A stretch of 32,000 bases of DNA from Vibrio diazotrophicus (GCF_038452265.1 NZ_CP151843.1:521221-553220); one strand, 5' to 3'; shown: positions 8,264 to 23,921, counted from the stretch's first letter. The notes: a model not told the origin generated them from the letters alone. A program made the numbers and translations.

Positions 8264-8326
8264 CAATTTATCCTTAAGTTATGTCCTTAACCCAATATAG
8301 CAGTTTTTTTTAGAACAGAGTGCTTA

Positions 8327-8354: not shown

Positions 8355-8484
8355 GCTTTCATGGCAAAGAGATTCTCTCTCCTAGCATCTACGCAGCTTA
8401 GGCTGCGAGAATGAGCAAGTCTTTCGCCCACTCTTTGCTGCTTCAAGGTCGCCAGTGCTTACGCAATGGTACTGACGACAAACC

Positions 8485-8516
8485 ACTCAACATAAATCAT
8501 AACCATAATGCGCACT
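8485..8516 (-). other. Junction Xer site between satellite copies
   Basis: Reverse complement AGTGCGCATTA-TGGTTATGAT-TTATGTTGAGT. The XerC arm matches 11/11, the spacer is 10 bp, and the XerD-like arm matches 9/11. Confidence 0.7.
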
Positions 8517-8541
8517 TAGGTATGAGCTATTTTAAAATGTC

Positions 8542-8853
8542 CTATGCGGATGTTTTCCTTAATCCAATGTCTAACGGCTTGTCTTCTAAGGCTTCCAGTA
8601 TCATTCCAAAGCGCTTTAGCTCTAAGCCGCCAAAGTTATTCACGGCGTAACTTGAACTGTGTGGCGTGTAACTTCCTGCTGCGTATGGCTCTTGGTCTTT
8701 CTCAAGCGTCAGTTTCATTTCGACTGGGAACTTACCACCTAGATGCGCGTAAGCGATTTGTTCGTAGATGATTCGCCCTGGGCGATCTTCTTTGCTTGGT
8801 ATGTTTCGAGTTTCAACGCGAACGTTTTCTGGGAAGATTTCGATTTTAAGCAT
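8542..8853 (-). CDS. gene V-type ssDNA-binding protein (copy 2)
   Basis: Translation identical to 5730..6041. Confidence 0.85.
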   Translation of the reverse strand: MLKIEIFPENVRVETRNIPSKEDRPGRIIYEQIAYAHLGGKFPVEMKLTLEKDQEPYAAGSYTPHSSSYAVNNFGGLELKRFGMILEALEDKPLDIGLRKTSA

Positions 8854-8945
8854 GTGTTATTCCTCGTGTCGTCATCGTTCTGCATGCGTGCCCGCGCGTC
8901 TGCGACACACAATGCACACATTTCAGAACTTATGCTGATATTTCT

Positions 8946-10088
8946 CTATGCGATTGCTTTAAATGGTAAAACGTTAGATTTCTCTACAACCGGTAATTGA
9001 TACCAGTCTGGTATGCCCAACGCTTCAACTTCTATGACTTCTGAACGTCTGAGTGTTGGACAGATACGTGTCGCATCAAACGGTAAAGCTATATCGATAC
9101 CGATGCTTTTTAGTCGTGGTCGATGCACATAATATTGGCTGTTTTTCTCGATTTTTTGTCCAAGTTGCCACATCAACGCAACGCTTTGAGTCGTATTGGC
9201 TGCCAGTCTGCTGTTTACGATTCCTTGTTCAAGTAGTTGATCTGATATCGATTTATGCGTGTCATGAGTTGCGGTCAGTGTATTCATAGTTTTCTCAAGA
9301 TCTTTTATATGTTCGATGAAGTCTTCTAGCGTGGTTTTTCCGTAAAACTGTAAGTTATATCGTTTTAAATGCTTCTGGCTTAATTGGTGTTCTTCTCGAA
9401 CGACACCATGCTGCTCGCAGTATGAGATGAGTTTTTCTACGTAGTTAAGCTGTTCTTCTGATACGCCGTCTTTTTTGCGTTTATCTTTTCGTAAGTGATT
9501 CTTTAGTTCGTGTGCTTTAGAGTAGATTTTCGATAGTTTCCAAGAACGTTTTCCCCAGTAGCAACTGGTAAAATCAGGATAAGGCGTTGGCATTCTACTA
9601 CGACCGAGGGTTGTTGATGACATTGCCCGTATAAACGTAACTTCTCTGCCCTTGCCTACTTTATGGTTTCGAGTCCAGTCTATACGTGTAATTTCAGCAC
9701 CATCCCCAATAAGACGTGGCTTTTTATCTTCTGGAGTTTGACCGAAGTAAACCTTTGTATTCGCAGTAAAAGGTGGAAGATTAAATTTAGCTAAGATGTG
9801 ATTGTATATATCAATACATTCATCCAGTGACCGAAGACCAAAGAGATTATCCATACGTTGCCATCGTGACGGGTTACCTTCGATTCTAACGGTGAAGCCA
9901 TCACAACGAACCTTCAATGTGGTACTAAATGAACCTTCGAGCCCTTTAGTTTTTACGAACGATGAAAGCCGTTCACCTGTTTCTGAATCGATTTCTTCCA
10001 TGACACTTTTACCCACGAGTGGCAAACCACCCTCAGGATAAAATTGTTGGACTGTTAACCAGTCGATGAAGAAATTTAGCACTCTCAA
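8946..10088 (-). CDS. Rolling-circle replication initiator (copy 2)
   Basis: Translation identical to 6134..7276. Confidence 0.8.
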   Translation of the reverse strand: MRVLNFFIDWLTVQQFYPEGGLPLVGKSVMEEIDSETGERLSSFVKTKGLEGSFSTTLKVRCDGFTVRIEGNPSRWQRMDNLFGLRSLDECIDIYNHILAKFNLPPFTANTKVYFGQTPEDKKPRLIGDGAEITRIDWTRNHKVGKGREVTFIRAMSSTTLGRSRMPTPYPDFTSCYWGKRSWKLSKIYSKAHELKNHLRKDKRKKDGVSEEQLNYVEKLISYCEQHGVVREEHQLSQKHLKRYNLQFYGKTTLEDFIEHIKDLEKTMNTLTATHDTHKSISDQLLEQGIVNSRLAANTTQSVALMWQLGQKIEKNSQYYVHRPRLKSIGIDIALPFDATRICPTLRRSEVIEVEALGIPDWYQLPVVEKSNVLPFKAIA

Positions 10089-10191
10089 AAACCTGTCAAG
10101 TATATAAATATATATCTGGATGAATACTTTTATTTACCCTAACATAAGAGTGTAGAAATGTGTATGTATAATTAAATTAAGGTTTACTTTT
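10089..10191. promoter_or_regulatory. Divergent promoter/operator region (copy 2)
   Basis: Identical to 7277..7379. Confidence 0.5.
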
Positions 10192-10599
10192 ATGGTTAAT
10201 ATGATGATTAAAGATGTACTTAAAACGGCTAGAAATGAACTTAATCTAAGTCAGGAAGAAGTTGCAGAAGCGATAGGAATTACCAAGCAAACATACTTGA
10301 AATGGGAAAATGGAACGACTGAACCAAAAGCTACTCAAGTTGTTCAGTTAAGTAACGTTCTAAAGATTACACCTAATGAAATTTGCTCTGGCATTCGCAA
10401 TAAGAGAATGAATTTGGAAGAGTTCATTTTAAACACAGCTATGGCTAAAGTTCCAAGCGAAGTAATTACCATGTACTCATGGAAAATGCTCCCTGATCAT
10501 GTGGAGTTTTTCAGTAAAATTAATGGGTTAACTGAAGAAGAGTACTACTCAAGCTATGGTGAAGTTGGTTCAATAGAAGCTAAATTTAAGGGCGCGTGA
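10192..10599 (+). CDS. XRE-family HTH repressor (copy 2)
   Basis: Translation identical to 7380..7787. Confidence 0.8.
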   Translation: MVNMMIKDVLKTARNELNLSQEEVAEAIGITKQTYLKWENGTTEPKATQVVQLSNVLKITPNEICSGIRNKRMNLEEFILNTAMAKVPSEVITMYSWKMLPDHVEFFSKINGLTEEEYYSSYGEVGSIEAKFKGA

Positions 10600-10710
10600 T
10601 TCCGGAAGTCCGGAGTTAGTTCGGGTATAACAGGAACCCGAACCGCTTCGCGCCTTCTTCCTCCTCCTCAGTCGTCGTCGTCGTCATCCTGCGCTCAGGT
10701 TTACAGGCAC

Positions 10711-10734
10711 AAAAAACGGCAGTGAAAACTGCCG
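10711..10734 (-). terminator. Rho-independent terminator (copy 2)
   Basis: Identical to 7899..7922. Confidence 0.6.
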
Positions 10735-10826
10735 CGCGATTGACGTCTACGTAAAGTCGAATTATGAGAGCGCTTGGCTACTCATTTTCTCTCTACACGC
10801 GAGCGTATAGCAGAGAAAATCGAGCT

Positions 10827-11075
10827 TCATAAAAGATTAGTATCAGCACATATAAATATAGTGCCTTCCTTCTCATTTTTTTGAATAGTTAGAGTAGATT
10901 TCCCTTCACAGAATTGCTCCAAGCGAGGTTTGGCAATTTCTAGTTCGCTTAAAAATTCTTCCCAAGATTGATCATCCTTTTTATCAAAAATAGTTGGGGG
11001 AAAGGCTCCAAGTTGCACACGCTTACTATAAAGATTCTCTATTGCTTTTAAAAAACAATTATCCTGATAAGTCAT
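10827..11075 (-). CDS. hypothetical small acidic protein (copy 2)
   Basis: Translation identical to 8015..8263. Confidence 0.55.
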   Translation of the reverse strand: MTYQDNCFLKAIENLYSKRVQLGAFPPTIFDKKDDQSWEEFLSELEIAKPRLEQFCEGKSTLTIQKNEKEGTIFICADTNLL

Positions 11076-11138
11076 CAATTTATCCTTAAGTTATGTCCTT
11101 AACCCAATATAGCAGTTTTTTTTAGAACAGAGTGCTTA

Positions 11139-11166
11139 AGTACGCATTATGCAATTTATATTACGG
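11139..11166 (+). other. Internal inverted dif-like site (copy 2)
   Basis: Identical to 8327..8354. Confidence 0.6.
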
Positions 11167-11296
11167 GCTTTCATGGCAAAGAGATTCTCTCTCCTAGCAT
11201 CTACGCAGCTTAGGCTGCGAGAATGAGCAAGTCTTTCGCCCACTCTTTGCTGCTTCAAGGTCGCCAGTGCTTACGCAATGGTACTGACGACAAACC

Positions 11297-11328
11297 ACTC
11301 AACATAAATCATAACCATAATGCGCACT
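11297..11328 (-). other. Junction Xer site between satellite copy 2 and the prophage
   Basis: Same 32 bp as 8485..8516. The sequence to the right then switches to GATTAATGGATTGTT, which is prophage-specific. Confidence 0.7.
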
Positions 11329-11677
11329 GATTAATGGATTGTTGAATCATACCATATCCCATAACAATTGCTCCGTAACTCATTGAAAACCTTTGTAATC
11401 CGTACTTACTGAACTTTTTTGCCATACGCTCCCAGACCTCTTTTGAGATCACACTTTTGCTGCGGTCAACGTGACAACCAATGAGTGCCAGTTCTGGTGC
11501 TATTTTTGTTTTTTCAGCCAGAAAAATTGCTTGTTCATCAGACATATAGCGCTTTCCTTTGCGAAATTCACAGATTCTAGTCGCTGGAACCTCTAAATCC
11601 TGCGCAATTTGCTTGTCTTGTTGGTAGTTTTGCGCCGTTTTATAGGCTTCAATCAGCAAGTTTTGATACATGGACAA
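11309..11677 (-). CDS. Phage HTH transcriptional regulator (repressor-like), divergent from the Rep operon
   Basis: 122 aa. It has an HTH-like segment DKQIAQDLEVPATRICEFRKGKRYMSDEQAIFLA. The last codons and the stop cross the att junction. Confidence 0.6.
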   Translation of the reverse strand: MSMYQNLLIEAYKTAQNYQQDKQIAQDLEVPATRICEFRKGKRYMSDEQAIFLAEKTKIAPELALIGCHVDRSKSVISKEVWERMAKKFSKYGLQRFSMSYGAIVMGYGMIQQSINQCALWL

Positions 11678-11797
11678 TCCTCATTTTTTACCATTTTTGG
11701 CTAATAATCAGCACTTTGAGCGTATTGCAATTACCACTATCGGTAATCTAATCTCTAGCGAAATACAGCAATTCGATTATAGGCTGGGATTCGATAA

Positions 11798-12016
11798 ATG
11801 CTCAAGCTCACCACCAAGATTTACTATGACTTACTGCCCGATTATTCGGTATCCGTACTTGTGTACGGTTCGACCGAATGGGACGTTTTTCGCAGTATGA
11901 ATCATCTGTGTGCTTGGGCTGACGCCGAAATCCCGTATTACGAGTTGGTCGACATTACCAACACCACCGCGCAACAGCGCATGAACTTAGGGGTTTTCGA
12001 TGGCTGTCAGTATTGA
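11798..12016 (+). CDS. hypothetical small protein upstream of Rep
   Basis: 72-aa ORF that overlaps the Rep start by 17 nt. No motif recognised. Confidence 0.4.
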   Translation: MLKLTTKIYYDLLPDYSVSVLVYGSTEWDVFRSMNHLCAWADAEIPYYELVDITNTTAQQRMNLGVFDGCQY

Positions 12017-13142
12017 TTACCTCTGTTTCACCATGAAAGTAAAAGACTTGCGCCACTGTGCACGTGCTACTTACATGGACACACATCAGCATGACCCTGA
12101 CGTGAAGAAAAAGTCACGCCGTAACACTTTGATGATAAATCCCATAGCGCGCTTTTTCCCACAAGAGCCGGTGTTCAATACCGATTTTCGTGCGCACAGT
12201 GCTGACGACATCGAGGCTTACCGCAATTTCTTCCGCATTCAGTATCAAGAGTATTTAGACCGTTGTTTGAAATTGTTCGTTACTCATGTACTTGGTTTAA
12301 CCATGAACGCGCCGCGTGGGTTTGGTTTTCAGTTCTACACCGAGTCGATGAAACTCACGACCGCAGACGGTGAAGATTTTTGCGGATTTGTGGGGATTGG
12401 TGGCAACCAAGACACGGTGCATTTTCAAATCAATGGTACGGGCTGCAAGCACGTGTTTGCCAAGTTGCAAGCGTGGGAGTTGCACGGCTGGTTATCTAAT
12501 GTGTTAGGCGTTCAACAATTGGCGCGTCTCGACTTAGCGTATGACGATTATCACGGCTTGTTTGATTGTGACTATGCGTTAAAAGCCGCTTATGAGGATG
12601 CGTTTAGAACCGCTTCACGTGGCATTTCTCCAACGGTCAACGAGAACCACAAATACCGCTTTGGTGAGCATGGCGCGAAGCATTACAGCCAAGAAATGGT
12701 CTCGGTCGGCTCTCGAACCTCGCGCATTTACTGGCGCATCTACAACAAAGCGCTGGAGCAGAATCTCGCGCAGAACGGCATGGTCTGGTATCGCACCGAG
12801 TGTGAGCTGAAAAAATGGGACATCGATGCCCTATTAAATCCTGATGGCGCGTTCGCAGCTTTAAATGCCTTTAGTGCGTCTATAAGTAGCGCTCCAGCCT
12901 TTAATACCAAGCCTCGTCCTGAAAAGCGTGTCGCTTGTGATGTGTTAACCGCAGCGTATTGGATGCGCCGCCAGTACGGAAAAATTCTTAATTCGCTGAT
13001 TGAAGAGTTCGACGGCGATATTCCCAAGGTCATTGGATTACTGCAACGGGACGGGCGCAAGTTCAGCTTCCCCGATACCTATACGGCATTAATCCAGTCC
13101 ATTACAAACCGGTCAGTCGACCCATTGGAGTGTAAATCATGA
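12000..13142 (+). CDS. Rolling-circle replication initiator (gII/RstA-like), unrelated in sequence to the satellite Rep
   Basis: 380 aa. N-terminal SIDYLCFT and RLDLAYDDYHG motifs are typical of the Rep_trans family. It heads a tightly coupled operon. Confidence 0.85.
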   Translation: MAVSIDYLCFTMKVKDLRHCARATYMDTHQHDPDVKKKSRRNTLMINPIARFFPQEPVFNTDFRAHSADDIEAYRNFFRIQYQEYLDRCLKLFVTHVLGLTMNAPRGFGFQFYTESMKLTTADGEDFCGFVGIGGNQDTVHFQINGTGCKHVFAKLQAWELHGWLSNVLGVQQLARLDLAYDDYHGLFDCDYALKAAYEDAFRTASRGISPTVNENHKYRFGEHGAKHYSQEMVSVGSRTSRIYWRIYNKALEQNLAQNGMVWYRTECELKKWDIDALLNPDGAFAALNAFSASISSAPAFNTKPRPEKRVACDVLTAAYWMRRQYGKILNSLIEEFDGDIPKVIGLLQRDGRKFSFPDTYTALIQSITNRSVDPLECKS

Positions 13143-13492
13143 GTAAAGGTGTATTTGTGTTAGGCGTGGACATCATTTGGAACAGTTTCCGTGGTGATGG
13201 TGCGCAGCTCAATATCTCGCGTCCACTGCGTGAAATTAACGTGGAGAAGTTCAAACGCCGCACATTAGGCGAATCGGGCGATGTGAATCCGCAGTTTGAC
13301 CACCCTATTCAGCTTGATTACCAGTACGCGCTCAAGCTGGAGAAAACCGGCGCGTTAGTGCCTCGCCGTGAGTACGAATTGAAAATGGAAATCAACCCAA
13401 ACGACCCGTTGTCGGGCGCTATCGTGACCGAGTTGGTGCCGGTTGATGATGAAATCAAAACGCATTTCAAAGCCTCGGGCATGACCAAGTAA
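13139..13492 (+). CDS. probable ssDNA-binding/RstB-position protein
   Basis: 117 aa. Its ATGA overlaps the Rep stop. The assignment rests on position only. Confidence 0.45.
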   Translation: MSKGVFVLGVDIIWNSFRGDGAQLNISRPLREINVEKFKRRTLGESGDVNPQFDHPIQLDYQYALKLEKTGALVPRREYELKMEINPNDPLSGAIVTELVPVDDEIKTHFKASGMTK

Positions 13493-13692
13493 TGAGGCTT
13501 AATTCAGGCACTTATCTCATTACTTGTGACAATAAAGACTGTTCGACCGGCTACCAATTGGTGACGCTGGCAGAGGTGAAAACCGAGCTTGCGCCGCCTT
13601 ATATGACCCTCGACCAACTCAAACAAGTGATGCCTGAAACCGTGTTGTTTCTCGCCATTTGTTGGTGTTGGAAGAAGATTAACCACCACTAA
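13492..13692 (+). CDS. small phage protein with a hydrophobic C-terminus (candidate minor coat or assembly protein)
   Basis: 66 aa. It is coupled by a TAATG overlap and has a C-terminal VLFLAICWCW segment. Confidence 0.45.
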   Translation: MRLNSGTYLITCDNKDCSTGYQLVTLAEVKTELAPPYMTLDQLKQVMPETVLFLAICWCWKKINHH

Positions 13693-13708
13693 AAAAGGAA
13701 ATAATCCT

Positions 13709-13906
13709 ATGAAAACGATGAATGTAAAACGTGTTGTCTTGGCTTCGGCTCTTGTTATGGCTTCTGGCGCGGCGTCTGCTGCGGCTCCTGATGTGACAAG
13801 CGCAGTTGCCAGTATTGGCGAGTTTGGCGTGGTCATTGGCACGCTGGGCGGCGCTTATCTGTTGCTCACCATTGCGAAAAAAGCATGGGGCAAAATCGGC
13901 GGTTAA
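13709..13906 (+). CDS. Major coat protein (pVIII-like)
   Basis: 65 aa. A signal peptide ending ASGAASA is followed by a ~40-aa mature part with a hydrophobic core (GVVIGTLGGAYLLLTIA) and a basic tail (KKAWGKIGG). A strong terminator follows directly, as in Ff phages. Confidence 0.8.
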   Translation: MKTMNVKRVVLASALVMASGAASAAAPDVTSAVASIGEFGVVIGTLGGAYLLLTIAKKAWGKIGG

Positions 13907-13928
13907 AGTCGCCTTTGCTTGCTGACTC

Positions 13929-13955
13929 AAGGGCTGTGTATTCAGCCCTTTTTTG
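13929..13955 (+). terminator. Rho-independent terminator after the major coat gene
   Basis: AAGGGCTG-TGTATT-CAGCCCTT followed by TTTTG. Confidence 0.7.
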
Positions 13956-13976
13956 ATCGAACTTGAGGGTTTAAGG

Positions 13977-15521
13977 ATGGCACGTTATGACGTTAGAAAT
14001 GTATGTAATTACGGTGTTCTTATTGGGTTTATTTGTATTGCACTCTTAACCAGCGTGAATACTTATGCCAATCAACCGGCTAGATGGGTACTTGCCAGCA
14101 TTAAGCCTCTCGATTGCAGCTTCAAACCTTATGAAGACAAGTCCGTGTGTGTACAGCGTACTGATGAAGAAGCCGCTAAACGTATGGCAAATAATCCCGA
14201 TGAGAACTACATCCGTGTTGGTGAAATACGCAACATTGAGGAGCGCTACGGCGGCTCTCTGTTGCTGGCATCGATAGATTATGAGCGTTGGGTATTGTCC
14301 AATGCGAGTAATGCTGAAAATTGTGCTCAAGGTGAGTATCCGAAATACCCTGCGGTACGGTGTGAACCTCCGCCGCCCACCTGTGACGATCCTAAGTTCC
14401 AAAAAGAGTTTGAGCAGGCACAATACGCTTGTCAGATTGGCAACCCTAACACGCAGTTATGGACAACCGATTATCAATGGTCTTGCCAGGATGTGACCGG
14501 ACAACATCCCAACATCGTTTCAAGCTGCAACTATGTGCCCAGCGACTGCATCGTTGGCTTAACGTGTGAAAAAGCACCCAAAGATGTTGCCTATTGTGAC
14601 CCGAGCAAAGAGACGTGCGCCCTGCCACCGAAAACCGAAAAGACCAATGAACCTATCCCTGATTTGCCGCCCCTTGATGGTTCAAACAATGGTGCCGGTA
14701 ATGGCTCAACTGGCACAGGCGCAAACGTCCCCACGAATAACCCGAACTTCTGCGACTTGAATCCGCAGCTGTGTGAGAAACAACAGCCGCCAGAAGCAAT
14801 GCCTGAGCCAAATCCCACACCGACTGAAAAGCCTGAGAATACGGAACTGTCAGCCGGTGACAATGCGATAGTTGGGGAAGTGTCACTCTCTAATCAGCAT
14901 CTGGAGAACGTCAACAGCAACTTAAAAAGCCTCGGCGGTCAGCTGCTTGAACAGCTTTCGCGTGGCAATGAGTTTTCCCAGCATCAACTTGGGGTAATGC
15001 GTGAAATGCTGGAGCATCTTATCCAAGGCGATAACAGTGCGCTGATTCCCAATGACACTGGCAAAGAAGAAAAGCCCAAAGAAGAGGAGCAAGAGAAAAC
15101 CGACCCTCCGATGGCCAACGCCGATTGTGACAAATCGATATTTGAATGTCGCGGTGATGTCATTCAATGCGCCCTGCTCAAAGTTCAGTATGAGGATACC
15201 TGCACCGTTGCCGAGTTCGCGCAGTTAGAAGACGCCTTCAAGGACATTAAGTTACTCAACAATGAAGCGCTGCTGGTTCAGAAAGACAGCATCGATTACT
15301 CACGCATGAATCAGAAGTACCTCAATGGCGGTGTGTCCTTTGGTAGTGGTGCTTGTCCTGCGCCTGAACGCATTTCGTTTCGCGCCTTTGGTGACAGTAA
15401 AACTATTGAGTTTAAGTTTGATCCCGCTTGTCGCTATGCAGAGTTATTACGCCCCCTATTGATCGCCTTTGCGTGGTTAACGGGTTTGTTCATCATCGGT
15501 CGCACACAAGGAGCCGTTTAA
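13977..15521 (+). CDS. pIII-like minor coat / receptor-binding protein
   Basis: Signal/TM segment (VLIGFICIALLTSVNTYA), Cys-rich N-terminal domains, Gly/Asn- and Pro-rich linkers (NNGAGNGSTGTGAN; PPEAMPEPNPTPTEKPE) and a C-terminal membrane anchor (LLIAFAWLTGLFIIG). The ATG at 13977 follows AAGG. Confidence 0.7.
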   Translation: MARYDVRNVCNYGVLIGFICIALLTSVNTYANQPARWVLASIKPLDCSFKPYEDKSVCVQRTDEEAAKRMANNPDENYIRVGEIRNIEERYGGSLLLASIDYERWVLSNASNAENCAQGEYPKYPAVRCEPPPPTCDDPKFQKEFEQAQYACQIGNPNTQLWTTDYQWSCQDVTGQHPNIVSSCNYVPSDCIVGLTCEKAPKDVAYCDPSKETCALPPKTEKTNEPIPDLPPLDGSNNGAGNGSTGTGANVPTNNPNFCDLNPQLCEKQQPPEAMPEPNPTPTEKPENTELSAGDNAIVGEVSLSNQHLENVNSNLKSLGGQLLEQLSRGNEFSQHQLGVMREMLEHLIQGDNSALIPNDTGKEEKPKEEEQEKTDPPMANADCDKSIFECRGDVIQCALLKVQYEDTCTVAEFAQLEDAFKDIKLLNNEALLVQKDSIDYSRMNQKYLNGGVSFGSGACPAPERISFRAFGDSKTIEFKFDPACRYAELLRPLLIAFAWLTGLFIIGRTQGAV

Positions 15522-15522
15522 T

Positions 15523-15852
15523 ATGCAGTATTTCATTGGATTTTTAGCCACGGTGCTGGTTCCTCTCATTCCCAGCATTGCCAAAGGTCTGGCGACCTAT
15601 GTCGCGCTCTCGGTCGGGTTCTCCTTGGTCGCTTACACTGGAGTGTCGGTGGCTATGGATTCGATAGCCGATTACATACAGTCGAACATGAACGGCGTGA
15701 CACCGAAACTTGCCGCGCTCATGGCGATGGCTGGCGTGGATACCTATATCAACGTGGTGCTCACCTGTGTGGTGTTCTCGTTCACGTTAAACGGGCTCAT
15801 GTCTGCTACCGGCTATCGTCCTTCGTGGCGTAAACCGGTCGACCCAGCGTAA
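15523..15852 (+). CDS. pVI-like minor coat protein
   Basis: 109 aa with several hydrophobic helices, positioned between pIII and pI. Confidence 0.6.
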   Translation: MQYFIGFLATVLVPLIPSIAKGLATYVALSVGFSLVAYTGVSVAMDSIADYIQSNMNGVTPKLAALMAMAGVDTYINVVLTCVVFSFTLNGLMSATGYRPSWRKPVDPA

Positions 15853-15864
15853 GGAGTCAGCGTT

Positions 15865-17193
15865 ATGTTGCACGGTTTCAGTGGCGGTATGGGTACGGGG
15901 AAAAGTCTTAACGCCATCAAGTTTATCATCGAGAACGACAACTTCGCCGACCGTCCTGTGTTCTATCATGGTATTCGGGTGATGCTGCTCGACTACAACG
16001 TGTGTAACAGCTTTCAGGGCTGGCTCTATGGCGTGTATTTCCCAGCAAACAGTCACAACAAAGAGTTAGAAGCGAAACTGTTACGCATCGAGACAGAGCA
16101 ACGTCTGGCAACCCTAGAAGATTTGCCCTATCTGGGTTTTCATTACAAGAAGCACGAACCGTTTAAGCAGTGGCTTTACTGGTTCAAGAAACTGGCATCC
16201 CCTAAGCGCCTCGCCTCGTTTAAAGAAGCCTTAGCCGTGCTTGAACTCGATGAAGAGTCCATCACCTACCAAGACATTGAACACCTGAACCTGTCTTGGA
16301 CATCGTTTGATGATCCAACGGAGATCCACACGCTTCCTGCCGGTTCGGTGATACTGGTTGATGAAGTGCAGAACATTTGGGGCAATCGCACTGCTGGTAA
16401 AACCGTGTCGCCGGATGTGAAGTTCGTGACCACGCACCGGCACAAAGGCATTGATTTGGTCTACATCTCTCAAGACTTTAAAGACGTTGACCAAATCATT
16501 CGTCGGCGTATGCAGTATTACGTCCATTACGAATTCATCGGCGGTGACTGGCTGCATCGATACTTTCACATTGAAGGCTTTGACCCTGCCAATAAAACCG
16601 AACTAGCCAAAGCCGAGAAAGAGAAAGTGAAACGCGATAACAAATACTATGGCGTATATCTCAGCTCGATTAAGCACACGCAAAAAGTCAGGCTCGACCC
16701 GCAGTTAAAGAAAGGCATTATCGGCTTAACCGTTGGCGTGTTGGGTATCAGCGCAGCGGCGTTCTACCTCTATTCGTGGTTTCAAAAACAGGTCACACCG
16801 CCCACGGTCGAGACCGTTCACAGTGAAGCGCCAGCTCCTGAAAGTGCCGAAAATACGCAAGATTTAAAAATGCTGGATATAAACACAGTATATATAGAAG
16901 AATTCCTTCCGCGCTTAGATTCCCTGCCGTTCTCCGCGCCGGTGTATGACTCACTCACGCTCGATGCGAATCAATATCCTGAACTCACTTGTGTGATTGT
17001 GAGAAAGCAATGCAGCTGCTTCACCCAGCAAGGTTCAGCCTATGCCATTCAAGAGAGCGCCTGTTTTAACATTGCTCGCTATGGCTACTTTGACCCGTTT
17101 GAGGCATCCAGCGAGAACCATCAACGCCGAAAAACAGCCCAAAATCGCACTAATAGTGACAATGTCACACTCAACAAAGGTGGACTCTACTAA
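15865..17193 (+). CDS. Zot / pI-type assembly ATPase
   Basis: Walker A GGMGTGKS, Walker B VILVDEVQ and a central TM (IIGLTVGVLGISAAAFYLYSWF). AAGGAG lies 8 nt upstream of the ATG. Confidence 0.85.
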   Translation: MLHGFSGGMGTGKSLNAIKFIIENDNFADRPVFYHGIRVMLLDYNVCNSFQGWLYGVYFPANSHNKELEAKLLRIETEQRLATLEDLPYLGFHYKKHEPFKQWLYWFKKLASPKRLASFKEALAVLELDEESITYQDIEHLNLSWTSFDDPTEIHTLPAGSVILVDEVQNIWGNRTAGKTVSPDVKFVTTHRHKGIDLVYISQDFKDVDQIIRRRMQYYVHYEFIGGDWLHRYFHIEGFDPANKTELAKAEKEKVKRDNKYYGVYLSSIKHTQKVRLDPQLKKGIIGLTVGVLGISAAAFYLYSWFQKQVTPPTVETVHSEAPAPESAENTQDLKMLDINTVYIEEFLPRLDSLPFSAPVYDSLTLDANQYPELTCVIVRKQCSCFTQQGSAYAIQESACFNIARYGYFDPFEASSENHQRRKTAQNRTNSDNVTLNKGGLY

Positions 17194-18380
17194 TGAAACG
17201 TATTCTTGCCCTCGCCTTACTGTGCTTCGCTTCCCGAGCGTTTGCCTTTGAAGCCAACCTCGCCGGTAAGACGCTTAACGAGTTTTTTATCATCTCTAGT
17301 AAGGTGTTTGATAAGACCATCATCGTTGACCCATCTGTTAACGGTGATTTGAAGCTTTATCAAGCCTCGGGCGCGGCGAATTTCCGTGATGTGTGGTTCA
17401 GCGTCATGCGCGCTCATAACCTCACTTACATTGAATCGGGTTCAGTCATTCGCGTAGACAAGCGCAACAAGCTCACTGGCGGCAATGAAATCGTCACGCG
17501 CACGTATAAGCTGCTCTACCTCACCGCCGACGACCTACTGGAGCCGCTGAGAAAGTCTCTGGTTGTGCAATCGTCCGTGCTCGATGTGCCTGATGTGACC
17601 AACGTTGACAGTATCATTGCTGGCTCTGCGCTGATGATTACCGCGCCCAAATCGATGCACAGTGATATTGCGGAGTTTATCGATACGGTCGACAAACCAC
17701 TCAAACAAGTGAAGATACGCGCTGTGATTGTCGAAACCGTTGACGGTGATTTACGCGACTTAACCGTAAACCTCGCCGCTGGTGCCGGTGCCATTAAGAC
17801 GGCGTTTGATGGCTCTGCAATTGCGTTCTTGACCGGCTCTCCCAACTTCACCGCGACCAATGATGATTTTAATGCGTTTGTGCGTTGGGTTGAGTCCAAC
17901 GACAAAACCGAGATATTGAGCCGCCCTGAAATCAGTATCCTGCACGGTCACAGTGGATTGATTAGCGTTGGTCAGGAGCTGCCTATCATTACCGGTTCGT
18001 ACACCACGGAGACAGACGGAAGCAGCAAACCGTTTCAGACGATTGAACGCAAAGACGTAGGATTATCGCTGTGGGTTCAGCCTATGATTGGTTTGAATGG
18101 CGATATTAAACTCAGGGTAAAACAAGAGCTGAGTCGTGTTGATAAATCTGTGGAAGCCAGTGACATTGTCACTAGTAAGCGTCAAATCGACACGGTACTC
18201 TCGGTAAAATCCGGTCAAACCATCGCACTTGGCGGCATGATGGCGAGAGATTCGCAAACCGTGACCATGAAAGTGCCGGTGCTTGGTGATATTCCCTATC
18301 TAGGTGTGCTGTTTCGTTCTGAGACTGAGAAAACCAATAACAGAACGCTTGATGTAGTGCTATACGTTGAACAAACATAG
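17193..18380 (+). CDS. pIV-type secretin (phage export channel)
   Basis: Signal peptide (LLCFASRAFA), N-terminal domains, and a C-terminal secretin core (LSRPEISILHGHSGLISVGQELPIITG ... VPVLGDIPYLGVLFRSETEKTNNRTLDVVLYV). Confidence 0.8.
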   Translation: MKRILALALLCFASRAFAFEANLAGKTLNEFFIISSKVFDKTIIVDPSVNGDLKLYQASGAANFRDVWFSVMRAHNLTYIESGSVIRVDKRNKLTGGNEIVTRTYKLLYLTADDLLEPLRKSLVVQSSVLDVPDVTNVDSIIAGSALMITAPKSMHSDIAEFIDTVDKPLKQVKIRAVIVETVDGDLRDLTVNLAAGAGAIKTAFDGSAIAFLTGSPNFTATNDDFNAFVRWVESNDKTEILSRPEISILHGHSGLISVGQELPIITGSYTTETDGSSKPFQTIERKDVGLSLWVQPMIGLNGDIKLRVKQELSRVDKSVEASDIVTSKRQIDTVLSVKSGQTIALGGMMARDSQTVTMKVPVLGDIPYLGVLFRSETEKTNNRTLDVVLYVEQT

Positions 18381-18587
18381 AACAAAGATTCCTGCCCTTG
18401 ATCAACTGTAATTCGCTTATTTAGATACTTTGCATAATCTAGTCACATTATTAAAAATAACCTCTAAACAAACAATACGTTATACTGATAATCTATCACT
18501 GAATTAGTAATTATAAGAAAGCGGTCTACCGGATTGGTTCCGTATAAGAACTGTTAGGGCAATCGTAGTTTGGCGGAAGGGATAAAA

Positions 18588-19295
18588 ATGGCAAATATAG
18601 GTACAATTGATTTCTATATCGGAGTGCCAAGTTTACCTCGCGAGGACTTTGAAAAATATTCGACACAGCTTTTTGACGAATGGGAAGCATATGTTGACCA
18701 AAACTTGGAACTAAGTGACTACTCTCTTGTTCTAGAAGTTGAAGAAGGTTCAATAAAAGCCAAAGGTAAAATACTTGCTACCGCGAGTGTTTTGTATTTT
18801 GGCATTGCCCAATATGGTTCATTCATCTCCGGTCTACAAACAATAAATAATCAAGTTAAGGCTGTAGGAGATTATCTAGGCGAAAGAGCTAGTTCGCCAT
18901 TTGATCTAAGTCGAGTTCAGCCCAAGTTGCGAAAGCGAGGGGAATCTCTTGCCCGTCTAGAAAATCTTTTTGTCAAAGTTCAGCGCGGTGAATTAACTGT
19001 CGAAATGGCAATGCAAGAAACGGAAGCTATCTTCGGTGCAGAGCTAAAGGAGGCTCCAGAGTTTTATAATGACCTCAAGGAATCTTTGGAGAAAACACAA
19101 GTATTTCCACAGCAAATGGAATTGAAGCTCGTTGACGTGAATGGCGAAGAGTTAGCCATTCCTCATCTGCCTCCAAAGCAACCACGGAAGCCTCAACAAC
19201 CTAGAAATCCAGCTCCTGCTGTAGATCAGTTTAGAGTAGAGGTCTGGCGTGAAACGAAAAATAGCAAGAGGAACGTCAAAGTTACAAGCTTATAA
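18588..19295 (+). CDS. hypothetical protein (235 aa) with one hydrophobic segment and a Pro/Gln/Lys-rich tail
   Basis: The ATG at 18588 follows GGAAGGG. Hydrophobic segment ILATASVLYFGIAQYGSFISGL; tail PPKQPRKPQQPRNPAP. No family recognised. Confidence 0.55.
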   Translation: MANIGTIDFYIGVPSLPREDFEKYSTQLFDEWEAYVDQNLELSDYSLVLEVEEGSIKAKGKILATASVLYFGIAQYGSFISGLQTINNQVKAVGDYLGERASSPFDLSRVQPKLRKRGESLARLENLFVKVQRGELTVEMAMQETEAIFGAELKEAPEFYNDLKESLEKTQVFPQQMELKLVDVNGEELAIPHLPPKQPRKPQQPRNPAPAVDQFRVEVWRETKNSKRNVKVTSL

Positions 19296-19378
19296 AAATT
19301 TCACATACAAGCATTTAAGAGTGATTCCTAACGCTTGACATTTATCATTCCATCGTTGGGTTTTGTGTTTACGGTAGT

Positions 19379-20089
19379 TTGGTTAAGTTTCGTGGTAGCG
19401 TTGCTCACACCTTAATGAAGCGTAGGACTTTTGGAGGAAAATTGGAAAAAAATGATAATGTTGTGGATATCCCGCAACAAGATAAAGATGAATTAATCAA
19501 ACAGCTCAAGTTACAAATTTCTGAGTTGGAAGATGACAAAAATCGTGAGATTGAAGAACAACAGCGTCGGTATTTCATAAGACAAGCTGAACTAAAAAAT
19601 GACCGAGTTAAAGCTACAGTAATAGGCTGTATTTTCATGTTTTGCCTTACAATTTTAGTTTTCTTATCTTTTCGAAATCCAGACATATACTTAATTGATA
19701 AGGAAACTACTCGATTTGTAGCTCAAGCTGTTAATGCATTCTTTCTTCTAATGATTCCGCTGATTATTGGCTCAATTGGTGCTATTGCGAGAATAATGGT
19801 TTCGGGAATGCCGATACTAAAAAACTCAACGTTGGTACTTTCTTCAGGTTTGATGGCGATGTTTTCGTGGGTTGGAATAAAAAGTGAAATCCTAGTTTCT
19901 ATAATCGCACCGCATATAGAGAAGCAAGGTGTTAGTGTCTCCGCAGCAACTGCAAACACTTCAGCCGAATTTTATAGCATGGCTTTGGTTGCTATTGTAG
20001 TCGGTATGTTTTCGTCAAACGTTTATATATTTATAAATCAAAAAGTAGAAGCTTTGACAAACGTAAGACAGCCCATACAAACGCTTTAA
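19379..20089 (+). CDS. hypothetical multi-pass membrane protein with an N-terminal coiled coil
   Basis: ELIKQLKLQISELEDDKNREIEEQQRR is followed by about 4 TM helices. The start is uncertain (TTG at 19379 or ATG at 19415). Confidence 0.5.
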   Translation: MVKFRGSVAHTLMKRRTFGGKLEKNDNVVDIPQQDKDELIKQLKLQISELEDDKNREIEEQQRRYFIRQAELKNDRVKATVIGCIFMFCLTILVFLSFRNPDIYLIDKETTRFVAQAVNAFFLLMIPLIIGSIGAIARIMVSGMPILKNSTLVLSSGLMAMFSWVGIKSEILVSIIAPHIEKQGVSVSAATANTSAEFYSMALVAIVVGMFSSNVYIFINQKVEALTNVRQPIQTL

Positions 20090-20229
20090 GATGGACTCGC
20101 AAAGCTTGGCTAATTAAAGGGATAAAAACACGAGCCATTTTTTGGTTCGGTTTGGGATTGCGGCTAGTTGGGTATTACCATATCAGTTTTGTCGCCAAGT
20201 CGTATGTAAAAGTAAAAGGCGTAAGACCA

Positions 20230-21162
20230 ATGAATATTCTTGAGACAATACCTGCATTTCTTTCTGCAGTTGCATCTATAGGGGCAGCAATAGCTGCTTT
20301 TATCTCGTTACGTATTAGTAAGCAAGCTCAATCGATTACTGAGCTGAATGCTCTAGCGAATCATCATGCATCTGCAACTACAGTGTATGTTGAAGTGGTG
20401 AAAGAATTATATGACGCGTCAGAATCCTTCCAAGAGATTGGCTATGAAATGTGGTCTCAATGGGGGCGAAACATAGAAAATAGCTACGACAAATCTAGTC
20501 TCGGAGGCAATAACCCAAGACCATTACGCCATGTGCTGTCCAATGGTAGTGAAATGTTATCAAACTATGCCCTAAATAATGAGCGCTGGGTAAGATCAAC
20601 AAGTGATGCAATTTTCTCAATTATTCGATTTGGTATGAGCAGGTATAGTGATGCTGAGTATCAAAAGTTACTCAAAAAAGCCGATGGAGAATACTTAGAT
20701 TTTGAAGGTGTATTCGGTAAGCCCAAGTTAAGTGAGCAGATTGGTGATGCACCGGCATTTCGATGGGTATGCTATCAACTAAATAAACGTGTAACCAATG
20801 AAGAATGGATAGCTGTTTGGAACAAAGCTTGGACTAAAGGTGATTGGTTCGATAAGTATGAACAGGAATACTTGAGAATTAAGCCTATTTTTGAACATGC
20901 AAAAGAGAAGTTAGAACGTGAAAAGTCAAAATTGTCACCATCTGCTTTTCCTCTACATTGTAATTCAATCCTTGAACGTAAATATGCTCAGCTTATTAAG
21001 ATTATCAATCATATCATTGATGATGCGGACATAGAGAACTTTACTATTTACAAGAATTGGAGATTCACTGAAGAGCTTAGCCAATTGGTTCTATGCGCAA
21101 TGGCAACTGGCTTCTGTTTGCATAAACAGCTAGATGACTTATATATACTCGCCAATGAATAA
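20230..21162 (+). CDS. hypothetical single-pass membrane protein (~310 aa) with a Trp-rich soluble domain
   Basis: MNILETIPAFLSAVASIGAAIAAFISLRI forms a TM anchor. The ATG at 20230 is preferred over the TTG-extended track ORF at 20152. Confidence 0.55.
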   Translation: MNILETIPAFLSAVASIGAAIAAFISLRISKQAQSITELNALANHHASATTVYVEVVKELYDASESFQEIGYEMWSQWGRNIENSYDKSSLGGNNPRPLRHVLSNGSEMLSNYALNNERWVRSTSDAIFSIIRFGMSRYSDAEYQKLLKKADGEYLDFEGVFGKPKLSEQIGDAPAFRWVCYQLNKRVTNEEWIAVWNKAWTKGDWFDKYEQEYLRIKPIFEHAKEKLEREKSKLSPSAFPLHCNSILERKYAQLIKIINHIIDDADIENFTIYKNWRFTEELSQLVLCAMATGFCLHKQLDDLYILANE

Positions 21163-21483
21163 CTCAGGCTAAACTAAGCAACTTTAGTGCATTTCCCCAC
21201 CCCGAAGGGATAAGGGAGCGTGTACGCGACCGAGGCACCAAGCCCACACAAATGCTGAGTGTCTCGTGTCGTTAAATGGCGCGGAGCTTCCCTAGCCTTT
21301 TGTGGCAACATATCCCCCCTTCCTGCCAAGCCTAACGACCTAATAATCTACAGCGTCAAAACTTGCTCATAGCTTTGCAGCTAACGCATAGCGGCTTTCC
21401 GTCTGACTAATAAAGCGCAATTACGATTGAGTGTGTGCTCGGAACGAGCGCACGCACAAGCGTGATGCGCTTGAAGGAAAGGC

Positions 21484-21510
21484 AAAACCCCCGAATCTGT
21501 ATTACGGGGG
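21484..21510 (-). terminator. Rho-independent terminator of the 125-aa regulator gene
   Basis: On the minus strand: CCCCCG-(11-nt loop)-CGGGGG followed by TTTTGCC, about 40 nt after the stop. Confidence 0.6.
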
Positions 21511-21552
21511 TAAATTCCACCGAACTATCGGCGTTCTCTGTTTTGGGGACGT

Positions 21553-21930
21553 TTAGCGTCTCTCTAAAACTAATATCTTCGCTACAGCCCTAGCGAGTCT
21601 TAATAGTTTTGAACTCGTTTGAAAAGTTTCTTGGCTTTGCCCATACATGAGCGCTTGAGCTAGAAGTATTTGTTGTGGAGTGATAGTTTCACCTGTAGGT
21701 GTAACGATGTGGTGATGGGATATTTTGAAATCTTCCCAGTTCTTCTTGTGACTAATTTCCCTCCCCGTTTGTAACCGCATTAGTCGACGGCAACATTCTG
21801 GTATCTCACGCCCCCTATCCCAAGCCTTCACTGTACTTATGCTTTTACAGCATAAGTCTGCCGCCTGTTCAACGCTGAGGCCACATAAAAATTCCCGAAA
21901 AATTCGATTTTCATTATATTTAATGCGCAT
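21553..21930 (-). CDS. small phage-associated HTH-like regulator (resembles the family I recall as DUF3653)
   Basis: FREFLCGLSVEQAADLCCKSISTVKAWDRGREIPECCRRLMRL. It is about 50% identical by eye to the paralogue at 23469..23825. Confidence 0.6.
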   Translation of the reverse strand: MRIKYNENRIFREFLCGLSVEQAADLCCKSISTVKAWDRGREIPECCRRLMRLQTGREISHKKNWEDFKISHHHIVTPTGETITPQQILLAQALMYGQSQETFQTSSKLLRLARAVAKILVLERR

Positions 21931-21979
21931 ATTAATTGACTAATAAATAAAATTTACGCGCATACTAACCGGACATAAT

Positions 21980-22017
21980 AATCAGTCGCATAAAAGTCCT
22001 GAATTATGCGACTGATT
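21980..22017 (-). terminator. 14-bp perfect hairpin downstream of the coiled-coil gene (probable terminator)
   Basis: AATCAGTCGCATAA (21980-21993) pairs with TTATGCGACTGATT (22004-22017), with a 10-nt loop, about 20 nt after the stop at 22038. The minus-strand tail is ATTATTATG. Confidence 0.5.
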
Positions 22018-22037
22018 TCAAACTTAACTACAATAAG

Positions 22038-23048
22038 TTACTTGTTTATATGCTCTCTTATGAGTTCCATCTTCTTTTCTATACGAGCTTTTAATAAATT
22101 TTCTTGGCTTATTGATAAGTCTATTGACTGCGAGTCAATGCATTCTTTCACCAAATATGGGATTTGCTTTAAAGATGCAACCTTGTCAAAATTGGCTGTA
22201 ATTAAATTTATAGATTGATACAATAAAGTTGAAATAATTCCTAGTATTACTATATTAATTGAAATTATCGGTAATCGACTAACTAGTAACGACCACAAAT
22301 CAAAATTAAACTGATAGTTATCCACTAGACTTATTGCAGAACTATAAATGTTATTAATAACCCAAATAAGACAAATAGAAAATACGGCTAAGAAAATGAC
22401 ATATATAGTATTTTGCTTTTTCAGCTCTTCCTTGTAAGCAGAGAAATCCTCACTATAAAACTCTGATTTTTTTTGAAACTCTTCTAGTTCACGTTTAACA
22501 GATTCAAGTTTTGCGCTTTTGTCATCTATATCAGTCTCAAATTTTGTCAATTTCGTACTCAGGACTTCAATGCCTTTCTCAAAGGATCTTTCTAATTCTT
22601 TATTTTTATTAACCTCAGCTTTCGTTCTTTCTAATTCTTTTCTATCATCACTTAAGTATACTCTCGTTGATTCTAATTGTTTTTTTGAAATTTCGTTAGT
22701 TTCTTCAAGTTCAGAAATACTTAAATTTAATACATTTATAGTTTCATTTAGTTTATTTATTTCTTCCTTCTTATCGCTCAGTTCAGAATCAATTAAGTCT
22801 TTTTCATTTATATTTTCAATGTCGAAAGCCGCCCATAACCTATCAATACTCTTCATCATCTGAACAATATCTTTCATATTTTTACCAGTTATATCTATTG
22901 AATTAAGAGATATGCCTCCTGGACTAGGACCAATAGTTATATATATGGTTTTTACTTCCATTGATACGTCAAAAGTAATCGATTCACTATTATTTTCTCT
23001 GATTCTCTGTGTTGCATGTATTTGAACTTCATTATTTTCATGATCCAA
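22038..23048 (-). CDS. coiled-coil protein with C-terminal TM helices (unknown function); reading frame continues upstream across one TAA
   Basis: About 120 aa of heptad-like Glu/Lys/Leu sequence is followed by IYVIFLAVFSICLIWVINNI and LPIISINIVILGIISTLLY. The track start at 23048 is only a TTG. Confidence 0.55.
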   Translation of the reverse strand: MDHENNEVQIHATQRIRENNSESITFDVSMEVKTIYITIGPSPGGISLNSIDITGKNMKDIVQMMKSIDRLWAAFDIENINEKDLIDSELSDKKEEINKLNETINVLNLSISELEETNEISKKQLESTRVYLSDDRKELERTKAEVNKNKELERSFEKGIEVLSTKLTKFETDIDDKSAKLESVKRELEEFQKKSEFYSEDFSAYKEELKKQNTIYVIFLAVFSICLIWVINNIYSSAISLVDNYQFNFDLWSLLVSRLPIISINIVILGIISTLLYQSINLITANFDKVASLKQIPYLVKECIDSQSIDLSISQENLLKARIEKKMELIREHINK

Positions 23049-23138
23049 AGCGATTAAACTAATAGATTTTGATGAATATGCAACATTTAACTCAATTGTA
23101 TCAACCCAGTGAACTTCTTTATTGCTAAAAATATATTA

Positions 23139-23279
23139 TCTATCTGATACCGTAAAGTTTTGAAATCTAAAACAGCTTTCATTAGTTCTATTATAACTAT
23201 AGCTTAATAAGTCATTGGCAATATCTAGACTTTCAACATGACAAAAATCTTTAATATTCTTTATAAGTTCACTATCCAT
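23139..23279 (-). CDS. 47-aa 5' fragment in frame with 22038..23048
   Basis: From the ATG at 23279: MDSELIKNIKDFCHVESLDIANDLLSYSYNRTNESCFRFQNFTVSDR, then TAA at 23136-23138. The frame is the same as the downstream ORF (23279-23048 = 231 = 77 x 3). Confidence 0.4.
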
Positions 23280-23468
23280 AAAATTCCTTTAAACTCCATG
23301 ACAATTCTCATTGAATATATATTACAGAATTTTTATGGTCACAAATACGGATAGTTAAAAATTTGTCGTTGATATTTGTGTTTTAGTTCACATATATTAA
23401 ATTAATAAACATAAAGTATTATAAATTTAACTTAGCATGCTGAATGCCTAAATCAGCTTAACACCAAC

Positions 23469-23825
23469 TTAAAAATGATAAATTCTGGACAATGCTCTAG
23501 CGAATTTTAGTAATTTCGAAGTAGTTTTTAGTTCAATCTCAGACTGAATAGATACTAAAGCGATGCCTAGAATAATTTGTTGTGGTGTTACCAACTGGCC
23601 AGTAGGAATTTCTAGTCTATCGTGAACCACTTTGAACTGTTGCCAACACTCGAGATGACTCAATTGACGACATTTTGCTAAACGCATGAGCCTTTTGCAT
23701 TCTGGCGGGATCATATGCCCTCTATCCCAATCAGTGACAGTCCTCGCACTTTTAAAACACAATTCAGCGGTTTCTTCGACGCTTAACCCACATTCAAATT
23801 CTCGAAAAAGTCTATTTTTATGCAT
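23469..23825 (-). CDS. small phage-associated HTH-like regulator, paralogue of 21553..21930
   Basis: FREFECGLSVEETAELCFKSARTVTDWDRGHMIPPECKRLMRL, with a shared PTG..(V/I)TPQQI(I/L)L and TSSKLL..ARA C-terminal half. Confidence 0.6.
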   Translation of the reverse strand: MHKNRLFREFECGLSVEETAELCFKSARTVTDWDRGHMIPPECKRLMRLAKCRQLSHLECWQQFKVVHDRLEIPTGQLVTPQQIILGIALVSIQSEIELKTTSKLLKFARALSRIYHF

Positions 23826-23892
23826 TTCTAGACACTCCCATTGAGAAAGTGTATAAAAACATCATTCTATAAGTTTTTGTTAAATAAGGATA

Positions 23893-23921
23893 ATTTACCG
23901 TAACTGGACATAATGCGCACT
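23893..23921 (-). other. dif-like junction site with a 7-bp centre
   Basis: ATTTACCGTAA-CTGGACA-TAATGCGCACT. The XerD-like arm matches 9/11 and the XerC arm 11/11. Confidence 0.65.

Follow-up and report, generated by a model that had tools for sequence, protein, structure and literature searches.

The classical moron of an inovirus, or filamentous phage, is ctxAB of CTXφ: dispensable genes that lie after the phage assembly genes and are carried into lysogens. The f237-like inoviruses of Vibrio parahaemolyticus likewise hold cargo of unknown function downstream of their assembly genes and upstream of a DUF3653 gene. A second mobile-gene system of vibrios is the chromosomal superintegron, with its promoterless, co-oriented cassettes and attC sites of the Vibrio cholerae repeat (VCR) type; transformation and plasmid-borne mobile integrons are the usual explanations for the movement of cassettes between the large chromosomal integrons of different Vibrio species. 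Cassettes also occur outside integrons, with no integrase gene (intI) nearby, as CALIN and SALIN, i.e., clusters of attC sites or single attC sites without an integrase, and these are small arrays, typically of one to three cassettes (Loot et al., bioRxiv 10.1101/2022.09.11.507474). Here, we describe a locus that resembles all of these, found in a 32,000-nt stretch of Vibrio diazotrophicus (NZ_CP151843.1:521221-553220, GCF_038452265.1; the whole stretch is hereafter called the window, and positions are counted from its first letter). The 2.8-kb block at 18381-21199, which holds three genes and lies within an inovirus prophage integrated at dif, is very probably an integrase-less mini-array of three cassettes from the Vibrio chromosomal-integron pool, carried as passenger DNA in a slot of the phage. 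Unlike the classical morons, this cargo is made of the units of a second mobile-gene system, with recombination sites still present, and unlike CALIN and SALIN, its carrier is an inovirus genome and not a chromosome or a plasmid backbone. New here are thus CALIN-like cassettes in a new type of carrier, an inovirus; full-text literature searches combining attC or cassette with filamentous phage or inovirus retrieved no description of such an arrangement.

The block directly follows gene IV (17193-18380, + strand), which encodes the secretin (Pfam Secretin, 2.5e-38; phrog_1012, 'protein IV of M13', 6e-81) and is the last core phage gene before the cargo. All parts of the block lie on this same strand. 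A leader of 173 bp (18381-18553) ends at the G of a core site, GTTAGGG (18553-18559), and cassette 1 (18554-19422) then begins with TTAGGG and holds open reading frame 1 (ORF1, 18588-19295) followed by an attC site, attC1. The limits of this cassette are matched by a cassette of Vibrio nigripulchritudo (locus L002), whose homology to the window begins exactly at GTTAGGG, spans ORF1 and the whole spacer, and stops at the end of the attC. Cassette 2 (19423-20221) begins with TAGGAC, followed by GGAGG, ORF2 (19442-20089) and a decayed attC2, and from 19317 to 20110 the window is 81% identical at the nucleotide level to a superintegron cassette of V. parahaemolyticus (L064). Cassette 3 (20222-21199) begins with TAAGAC and holds ORF3 (20230-21162), its own attC being cut to at most 37 bp (21163-21199). 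We considered this remnant as the 5′ arm of an attC3 and rejected it, as the likeness was visible by eye only and had no statistical support in nhmmer.

Of the sites between the genes, attC1 (19305-19425) is a full-length Vibrio attC of the VCR type. We trained a covariance model (R1) on 37 canonical attC sites from vibrios, each of the form TAAC...GTTA; of the 22 pairs predicted in their structure, 11 show compensatory changes. The model's only hit in the window was attC1, aligned over its full length with 91 bits (E=9e-19), and nhmmer likewise retrieved this site (E=6.4e-22). The second site, attC2 (20075-20224), is decayed: its 5′ arm, ATACAAACGCTTTAAGATGGACTCGCAAAGCTTGGC, is recognizable (nhmmer, 20077-20110, E=0.0018), and its 3′ end, GGCGTAAGAC, mirrors the 3′ end of attC1, AGCGTAGGAC, when aligned with attC1 and compared with L064 and L069, yet its L′ side is eroded, and at full length it gave no significant covariance-model hit. 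The attC hairpin did not emerge when the spacers' bottom strands were folded by minimum free energy; the alignment-based structure did show it. The window thus holds one strong and one decayed attC, 650 bp apart, without an intI gene within 32 kb. A search for an integron integrase in the window found none (its sole tyrosine recombinase, at 1884-2843, is described below), and the pair of intI and attI that makes a complete integron is absent.

Both attC sites carry non-canonical R boxes, reading ATAC for TAAC and GCGTA for GCGTTA (in attC1, at 19305-19308 and 19420-19424). By comparison, among 219 distinct full-length Vibrio attC sites in the loci that we fetched, 194 were canonical on both arms and three were non-canonical on both. 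The AAC/GTT triplet is the point at which integron integrases cleave, and because this triplet is lost from both sites of the window, they are probably inactive; the motifs thus suggest that these are fossilized attC sites, derived from cassettes and probably no longer mobile. In attC2, the change from TAAC to ATAC also cost ORF2 its ancestral stop (V. parahaemolyticus and V. vulnificus have it as the TAA of TAAC), so that the gene gained four codons. The 5′ boundary of cassette 1 lies at G↓TTAGGG (18553/18554; the arrow marks the junction), while junctions 1/2 and 2/3 read GCG↓TAGGAC and GCG↓TAAGAC, with TT not intact. The array therefore differs from CALIN and SALIN in the missing triplets, in the truncation of its last attC and in the junctions of cassettes 2 and 3, which read GTA, unlike GWT. 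It differs from Vibrio superintegron arrays in lacking IntIA and attIA, in having three cassettes only, in its R boxes and in its location near dif inside a prophage.

Elsewhere, each of the three ORFs is an independent cassette gene that is found with different neighbors, and the attC sites between the genes make each of them a mobile unit in its own right. We examined 54 genome loci encoding an ORF1 relative, up to 10 kb on each side, and in none of them (0/54) was a homologue of ORF2 or ORF3, or an inovirus gene, present. Across 42 ORF1 loci from many genera, the core motif GTTRRRY was found upstream of the gene in 20 and RYYYAAC downstream in 19, compared to 6% and 5% of random positions, respectively, and both motifs flanked ORF1 in 12 of the 42, compared to 0.4% at random positions. 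The ORF1 relative of V. nigripulchritudo lies on a 9-kb contig with ten attC-type repeats. For ORF2, a 91% identical V. parahaemolyticus relative belongs to a typical superintegron array, whose small genes share one orientation and are spaced by repeats of ~120 bp, and it has an attC on either side; the same type of gene has other neighbors in V. vulnificus, and ORF2 was found as a cassette in L064-L066 and L069-L073. ORF3 relatives in V. parahaemolyticus (L074-L077) have attC sites on both sides (107-124 bits) and neighbors that vary by strain, and in Moritella marina (L078) one attC lies 3′ of the ORF3 relative. Homologues are 85-90% (ORF1), 81-91% (ORF2) and 65-81% (ORF3) identical to the window's proteins and are cassettes of Vibrio arrays where their context was examined (L002, L064-L066, L074-L077). 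When the concatenated trio was compared by tblastn to 50,697 phage records and 72,556 plasmids, no match was found.

Some further loci bear on the cassette genes. In Vibrio fluvialis (L067, 4166-6930), an ORF3 homologue is accompanied by a 5′ attC arm starting with ATAC, as in the window, near tyrosine recombinases. Cassette-like genes adjoin tyrosine recombinases in L067, L100 and L159 alike; these enzymes reach 50-70 bits in NCBIfam against a cut-off of 265 and are not integron integrases.

The three products were characterized next to the claims of a sequence-only reading of this DNA, which had reported three same-strand ORFs behind the secretin gene and an abrupt drop in composition after its stop. 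Both observations hold: the phage core (12000-18380) has a G+C content of 0.491, and the cargo block one of 0.384. ORF1 has the 235 amino acids (aa) previously given, though not the hydrophobic segment: it has no transmembrane (TM)-like segment (best 19-residue Kyte-Doolittle mean, 1.43), and AlphaFold2 confidently predicts a soluble alpha/beta protein (pLDDT 85.2, pTM 0.74). ORF2 indeed encodes four predicted TM-like segments behind a charged N-terminal helix, but its length of about 236 aa was revised. It most likely starts at the TTG at 19442, behind a GGAGG ribosome-binding site, and has 215 aa, since its homologues measure 211-216 aa, the V. parahaemolyticus cassette starts there and the public annotation of an identical sequence also gives 215 aa. 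With this start, the two spacers measure 146 and 140 bp and not 85-140 bp. ORF3 is as described, with 310 aa, a predicted N-terminal TM anchor and nine Trp residues, and AlphaFold2 models an all-alpha domain (pLDDT 90.0, pTM 0.83). No known family had been recognized in any of the three, and searches agree with this: the proteins gave nothing significant against Pfam, PHROGs, PADLOC, NCBIfam or in a profile-based sequence search of the PDB. The Foldseek comparison that had been proposed, done for the ORF1 and ORF3 models against the PDB and for ORF3 also against BFVD, produced no fold match either (TM-scores <=0.28). At 90% identity, the homologues form 321 (ORF1), 63 (ORF2) and 95 (ORF3) clusters, which are annotated as hypothetical only and have no Pfam domains.

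With regard to expression, it had been suggested that each gene might have its own promoter; instead, the spacers are attC recombination sites, and no promoter-like match was found in either of them (four matches in the region, compared to 8.6 in shuffled sequences). The single + strand promoter-like match in the region lies in the leader, upstream of ORF1 (18465-18492). No terminator-like site was detected between gene IV and ORF1, the orientation of the cassettes is that of the phage genes, and a ribosome-binding site precedes each ORF. Presumably, then, transcription of the promoterless cassettes would read through from the assembly operon or start at the weak promoter-like site (18465-18492), and read-through in the lysogen is the simplest model.

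The slot that holds the block was defined by three relatives of the phage from IMG/VR (L055, L056 and L057). In L056 and L057, whose protein IV (pIV) is 69% identical to that of the window, the slot is empty: the pIV stop runs straight into a conserved element, CCCCG(A/C)AGGGATAAG..., which in the window begins at 21200, where phage homology restarts. L055 (pIV 97% identical) is collinear with the window at 83-84% nucleotide identity over 11301-14048, 14747-18369 and 21200-21911. Its homology stops at 18369, inside gene IV, and the same slot contains 1.37 kb of other cargo, namely a 101-aa ORF and a Doc-family toxin. From these comparisons, 18381-21199 reads as dispensable cargo in a variable slot directly 3′ of gene IV, in line with the earlier view of the genes as dispensable cargo at a hotspot. 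The G+C content of the block is close to that of the host flanks (0.39-0.42), which makes the phage core the compositional outlier. Of the 23 contigs that encode the exact ORF1 protein, six were fetched, and all six were 100% identical to the window over the cargo arrangement, which is therefore not an assembly chimera. GCA_000740015.1 contains a 20.7-kb stretch that is 100% identical to window positions 8588-29295. As for the other cargo, L055:7256-8388 encodes the 101-aa ORF together with a 249-aa Doc-family protein (TIGR01550, 1.9e-13) and is probably toxin-antitoxin-like.

As to how the block arrived, an integron integrase may have recombined the cassettes into a G↓TT site, or they may have come in together as a piece of a cassette array. 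Insertion of cassettes by integrases at GWT sites in genomes has been shown, and later domestication via attC loss suggested (Loot et al., bioRxiv 10.1101/2022.09.11.507474). Integrase-mediated insertion leaves a junction like the left one of the block, which lies at a G↓TT core site. Following entry, the cassettes would have been fixed through loss of the AAC/GTT triplets in both attC sites. Inoviruses package the coding strand, as established for Ff phages, and because the top strand of the attC sites lies on the packaged strand, the recombinogenic bottom strand would rarely be single-stranded, which would also favor stable carriage. The three products, a soluble alpha/beta protein, a four-TM membrane protein and a membrane-anchored all-alpha protein, would act independently of one another and of virion production. 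The net effect would be lysogenic conversion, with cassette genes carried by the phage to new hosts.

Several points weigh against this account as a whole. Only one of the three attC sites passes the covariance model, and strict criteria such as those of IntegronFinder might score a single attC. Cassettes 2 and 3 begin with TA and not TT, and the right junction falls inside, or replaces, attC3; given this and the 173-bp leader on the left, illegitimate recombination that captured part of an array is an equally good fit. The arrangement is known from one strain lineage, every contig being the same V. diazotrophicus sequence, and packaging and transfer of the cassettes are therefore only a proposal. 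Expression by read-through rests on patterns only, and the account assigns no function to any of the three proteins. The route of entry is where an alternative comes closest: that the block is a random fragment of a chromosomal cassette array, brought into the prophage by illegitimate or homology-driven recombination and not by site-specific integrase insertion, has in our estimate somewhat less than an even chance. The right end truncated inside attC3, the unexplained 173 bp on the left and the two junctions without a GTT triplet all speak for it, as does the Doc-toxin cargo of L055, since a slot that holds non-cassette cargo takes up DNA by other routes. Site-specific insertion is favored by the left boundary of cassette 1, which falls exactly at the G↓TTAGGG core site, and by nine f237-type inoviruses in which an ORF and an attC come after a conserved backbone that stops exactly at ...CATAACAAGCG↓TTA, the signature of integrase insertion. 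A different objection, that the block is no phage cargo but host DNA caught between two distinct filamentous elements of the dif array, draws on the complexity of this array, which comprises a pair of satellites, the large prophage and a remnant, and on a G+C content equal to that of the host. We consider it highly improbable, as no dif-like site was found between 11316 and 23909, and as pIV and the element found at 21200 are contiguous within the single phage genomes of L055, L056 and L057.

The sequence-only reading had instead viewed the three genes as one membrane-targeted module, for superinfection exclusion, abortive infection or another anti-phage function, carried as a moron. The shared strand, tight spacing and cargo position of the genes fit such a module, two of the three products are membrane proteins, and none matches a housekeeping or structural family. 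Nevertheless, attC sites lie between the genes, ORF1 is not a membrane protein, and the check on co-occurrence and synteny that had been called for, once run, found no conserved co-occurrence: as described above, no ORF1 locus of the 54 has the partners, and the neighbors differ in every Vibrio array examined. Independent occurrence was one of the outcomes that this reading had named as refuting it. Nor did an anti-phage role find support, for PADLOC-DB v2 gave no hit for the three proteins and, among 37 family members, two weak PD-T4-6 hits (best E=9.1e-05). A joint module is thus highly improbable. A narrower version, compatible with a cassette origin, is unlikely: one or more of the cassettes would each by itself benefit the lysogen, as a small determinant of phage resistance or exclusion. 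In its favor, integron cassettes of unknown function are reported to include phage-resistance genes (bioRxiv 10.1101/2024.07.02.601719; PMC12614218; bioRxiv 10.64898/2026.03.17.712381); ORF2 and ORF3 are membrane proteins, and ORF1 and ORF3 represent well-conserved, confidently folded families without a known fold. Set against this are the lack of similarity to PADLOC, Pfam, PHROG and NCBIfam entries or solved structures, the absence of defense genes near the trio, and the low prior for any one cassette, since most have no assigned function. We therefore retain the view of the block as a mini-array of three independent cassettes.

Cassettes of this kind are not confined to the window. Scanning IMG/VR with the canonical 5′ arm of the Vibrio attC retrieved 63 stretches, 16 of which carry inovirus markers (Rep_trans, Zot, DUF3653, DUF3693), and Vibrio-type attC cassettes were present in at least 13 other Vibrio inovirus genomes. 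These include the published vB_Vipa36 (MT188663), in which a hypothetical coding sequence (7144-7455) is followed by a full-length attC (7462-7580). In 14 phage genomes the attC is placed 3′ of zot or gene IV; in 13 of them, vB_Vipa36 included, it has the same orientation as the phage genes. Nine f237-type genomes share a conserved module of ~180 nt 3′ of a 37-nt hairpin, and this module ends exactly at the junction ...CATAACAAGCG↓TTA cited above; past its end the sequences diverge, and an ORF and an attC follow 0.3-1.5 kb downstream. The carriers are L101, L106, L111, L123, L137, L146, L148 and L155 from IMG/VR and L162, which is vB_Vipa36 (an example of the module is L137:7661-7837). The module looks like a dedicated cassette acceptor site, either attI-like or a collapsed attC. 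VfO3K6 and Vf33, checked for both, have neither an attC nor the module.

The same hairpin is present in the window (21485-21521), within a conserved phage intergenic region (21200-21552, + strand, G+C content 0.52). Several Vibrio inoviruses, among them vB_Vipa71, vB_Vipa36 and VfO3K6, share it with 100% identity, and Vf33 and Vf12 match it over 34-36 nt. In the f237-like phages, the cassettes lie downstream of this hairpin, behind the module; those of the window lie upstream of it, directly after the secretin gene, whereas no gene IV was detected in the f237-type contigs examined. Furthermore, a hidden Markov model (HMM) search found no acceptor module in the window. As the window phage lacks the module and has its cassettes in another slot, upstream of the hairpin, cassette capture happened more than once. 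Two candidate readings of the leader (18381-18553) were examined, and the second was rejected. Read as an attC, it has suitable ends by eye (TCTAAAC...GTTAGGG), while its fold does not stand out from shuffled sequences (z=0.18) and neither the covariance model nor nhmmer hits it; read as a homologue of the f237-type module, it looks suggestive in a MAFFT alignment, while an HMM of eight modules finds nothing in the window.

Two side observations concern the acceptor module and its attC sites. Partial copies of the module head arrays in L100 and L159 and were considered as possible marks of attI sites; the adjacent recombinases, however, score below the NCBIfam cut-off for integron integrases. 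In L146:9370-9418, L148:3886-3934, L155:1498-1545 and L106:3529-3576, the attC sites are truncated, their center collapsed to a perfect hairpin, AACGCGTGGCATTTGACCACGCGTT, followed by a run of T; these resemble intrinsic terminators derived from attC.

These findings suggest that such phages can carry integron cassettes between bacteria. A cassette-carrying filamentous phage would be an additional and easily testable route of transfer, next to transformation and mobile integrons. Entry of single-stranded DNA (ssDNA) triggers the SOS response, which switches on the integron integrase. More tentatively, it is conceivable, though we would not call it probable, that Vibrio filamentous phages serve as integrase-less mobile integron platforms, onto which the integrase of the host's chromosomal integron would load cassettes at defined phage sites. 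The phage would take the cassettes to new hosts, and these would then be exchanged anew or become fixed through R-box mutations, the latter as in the window. Candidate loading sites would be the CATAACAAGCG↓TTA module in the f237-type phages and the G↓TT after gene IV in the lineage of the window. If true, this would link the two ssDNA recombination systems of Vibrio, XerCD/dif and IntI/attC, and provide a vehicle for the spread of cassettes across species. The variable regions of the vB_Vipa phages have been described as having functions 'not discernable', with no mention of integrons (Foxall et al. mBio 2023, PMC10790759). A cassette origin would explain part of these variable regions of V. 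parahaemolyticus inoviruses, which are used as lineage markers without a known origin. It also follows in practice that same-strand Vibrio ORFs with spacers of ~120-150 bp should be checked for attC sites before they are called an operon or a defense system. The ORF1 and ORF3 families (321 and 95 clusters), which travel as cassettes, are reasonable targets for functional screens.

The carrier itself is a dif-integrated inovirus prophage of 12.6 kb (11316-23908, + strand), flanked by dif-like hybrid sites (CATAATGCGCACT...) at 11316 and 23909. Such hybrid sites are repeated at 8504, 11316 and 23909 (repeat family D2 and extracted sites), and dif1 itself, an exact V. cholerae-type site, AGTGCGCATTATGTATGTTATGTTAAAT, lies on the - strand at ~5677-5704. 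The prophage encodes a DUF3693 repressor, a Rep_trans initiator, DUF1293, the coat protein, pIII, DUF2523/pVI, a Zot-like pI, the secretin pIV and DUF3653. Accordingly, the features expected of an inovirus at dif are present, i.e., a rolling-circle Rep, an ssDNA-binding protein, the coat protein, pIII, pVI, Zot-like pI, pIV and dif-like flanks; for the Xer-activating factor, the XafT-like match falls just below its cut-off. This match is the DUF3653 protein at 21553-21930 (- strand; Pfam DUF3653, 1.5e-6; phrog_1668, 5.5e-42), which resembles the Xer recombination activation factors of the VC1465/XafT family; with NCBIfam NF040522 ('VC1465 family Xer recombination activation factor') it reaches 64.8 bits, the cut-off being 70. 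It is 84% identical to its counterpart in L055 and marks the end of the phage backbone common to the two. These similarities suggest an XafT-like activator of XerCD-mediated integration at dif.

Other features were noted in and around the prophage. A second DUF3653 paralogue is encoded at 23469-23825 (- strand), and wedged between the two paralogues is an island of 28% G+C content (21931-23468). The product of an ORF in this island (22038-23048, - strand) has 336 aa and combines a long coiled coil with a C-terminal part that is hydrophobic; its matches are of the coiled-coil type only (SMC, JetC, tape measure). As a candidate moron or exclusion locus, the island is, by its composition, more typical than the ORF1-3 trio. 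Adjoining dif1, two identical satellite-like filamentous elements of 2812 bp lie in tandem (5692-8503 and 8504-11315), in the orientation opposite to the large prophage. Each encodes a Phage_CRI/G2P Rep protein of 380 aa, a Phage_DNA_bind protein of 103 aa and an HTH_3 protein of 135 aa. On the other side of the prophage, from 23909 to ~24300, lies a remnant element that is 81% identical to the satellite and has a DNA-binding gene of 100 aa. The sole tyrosine recombinase of the window is a Phage_integrase-family protein of 319 aa (1884-2843, - strand), 3 kb from dif1, with weak XerC/XerD-like scores and no TIGR02249 match. Lastly, the end of the DUF3693 repressor gene falls inside a dif-like hybrid site (11309-11343; …QCALWL and the stop are encoded by AGTGCGCATTATGG), and the C-terminus of the repressor is therefore set by integration.

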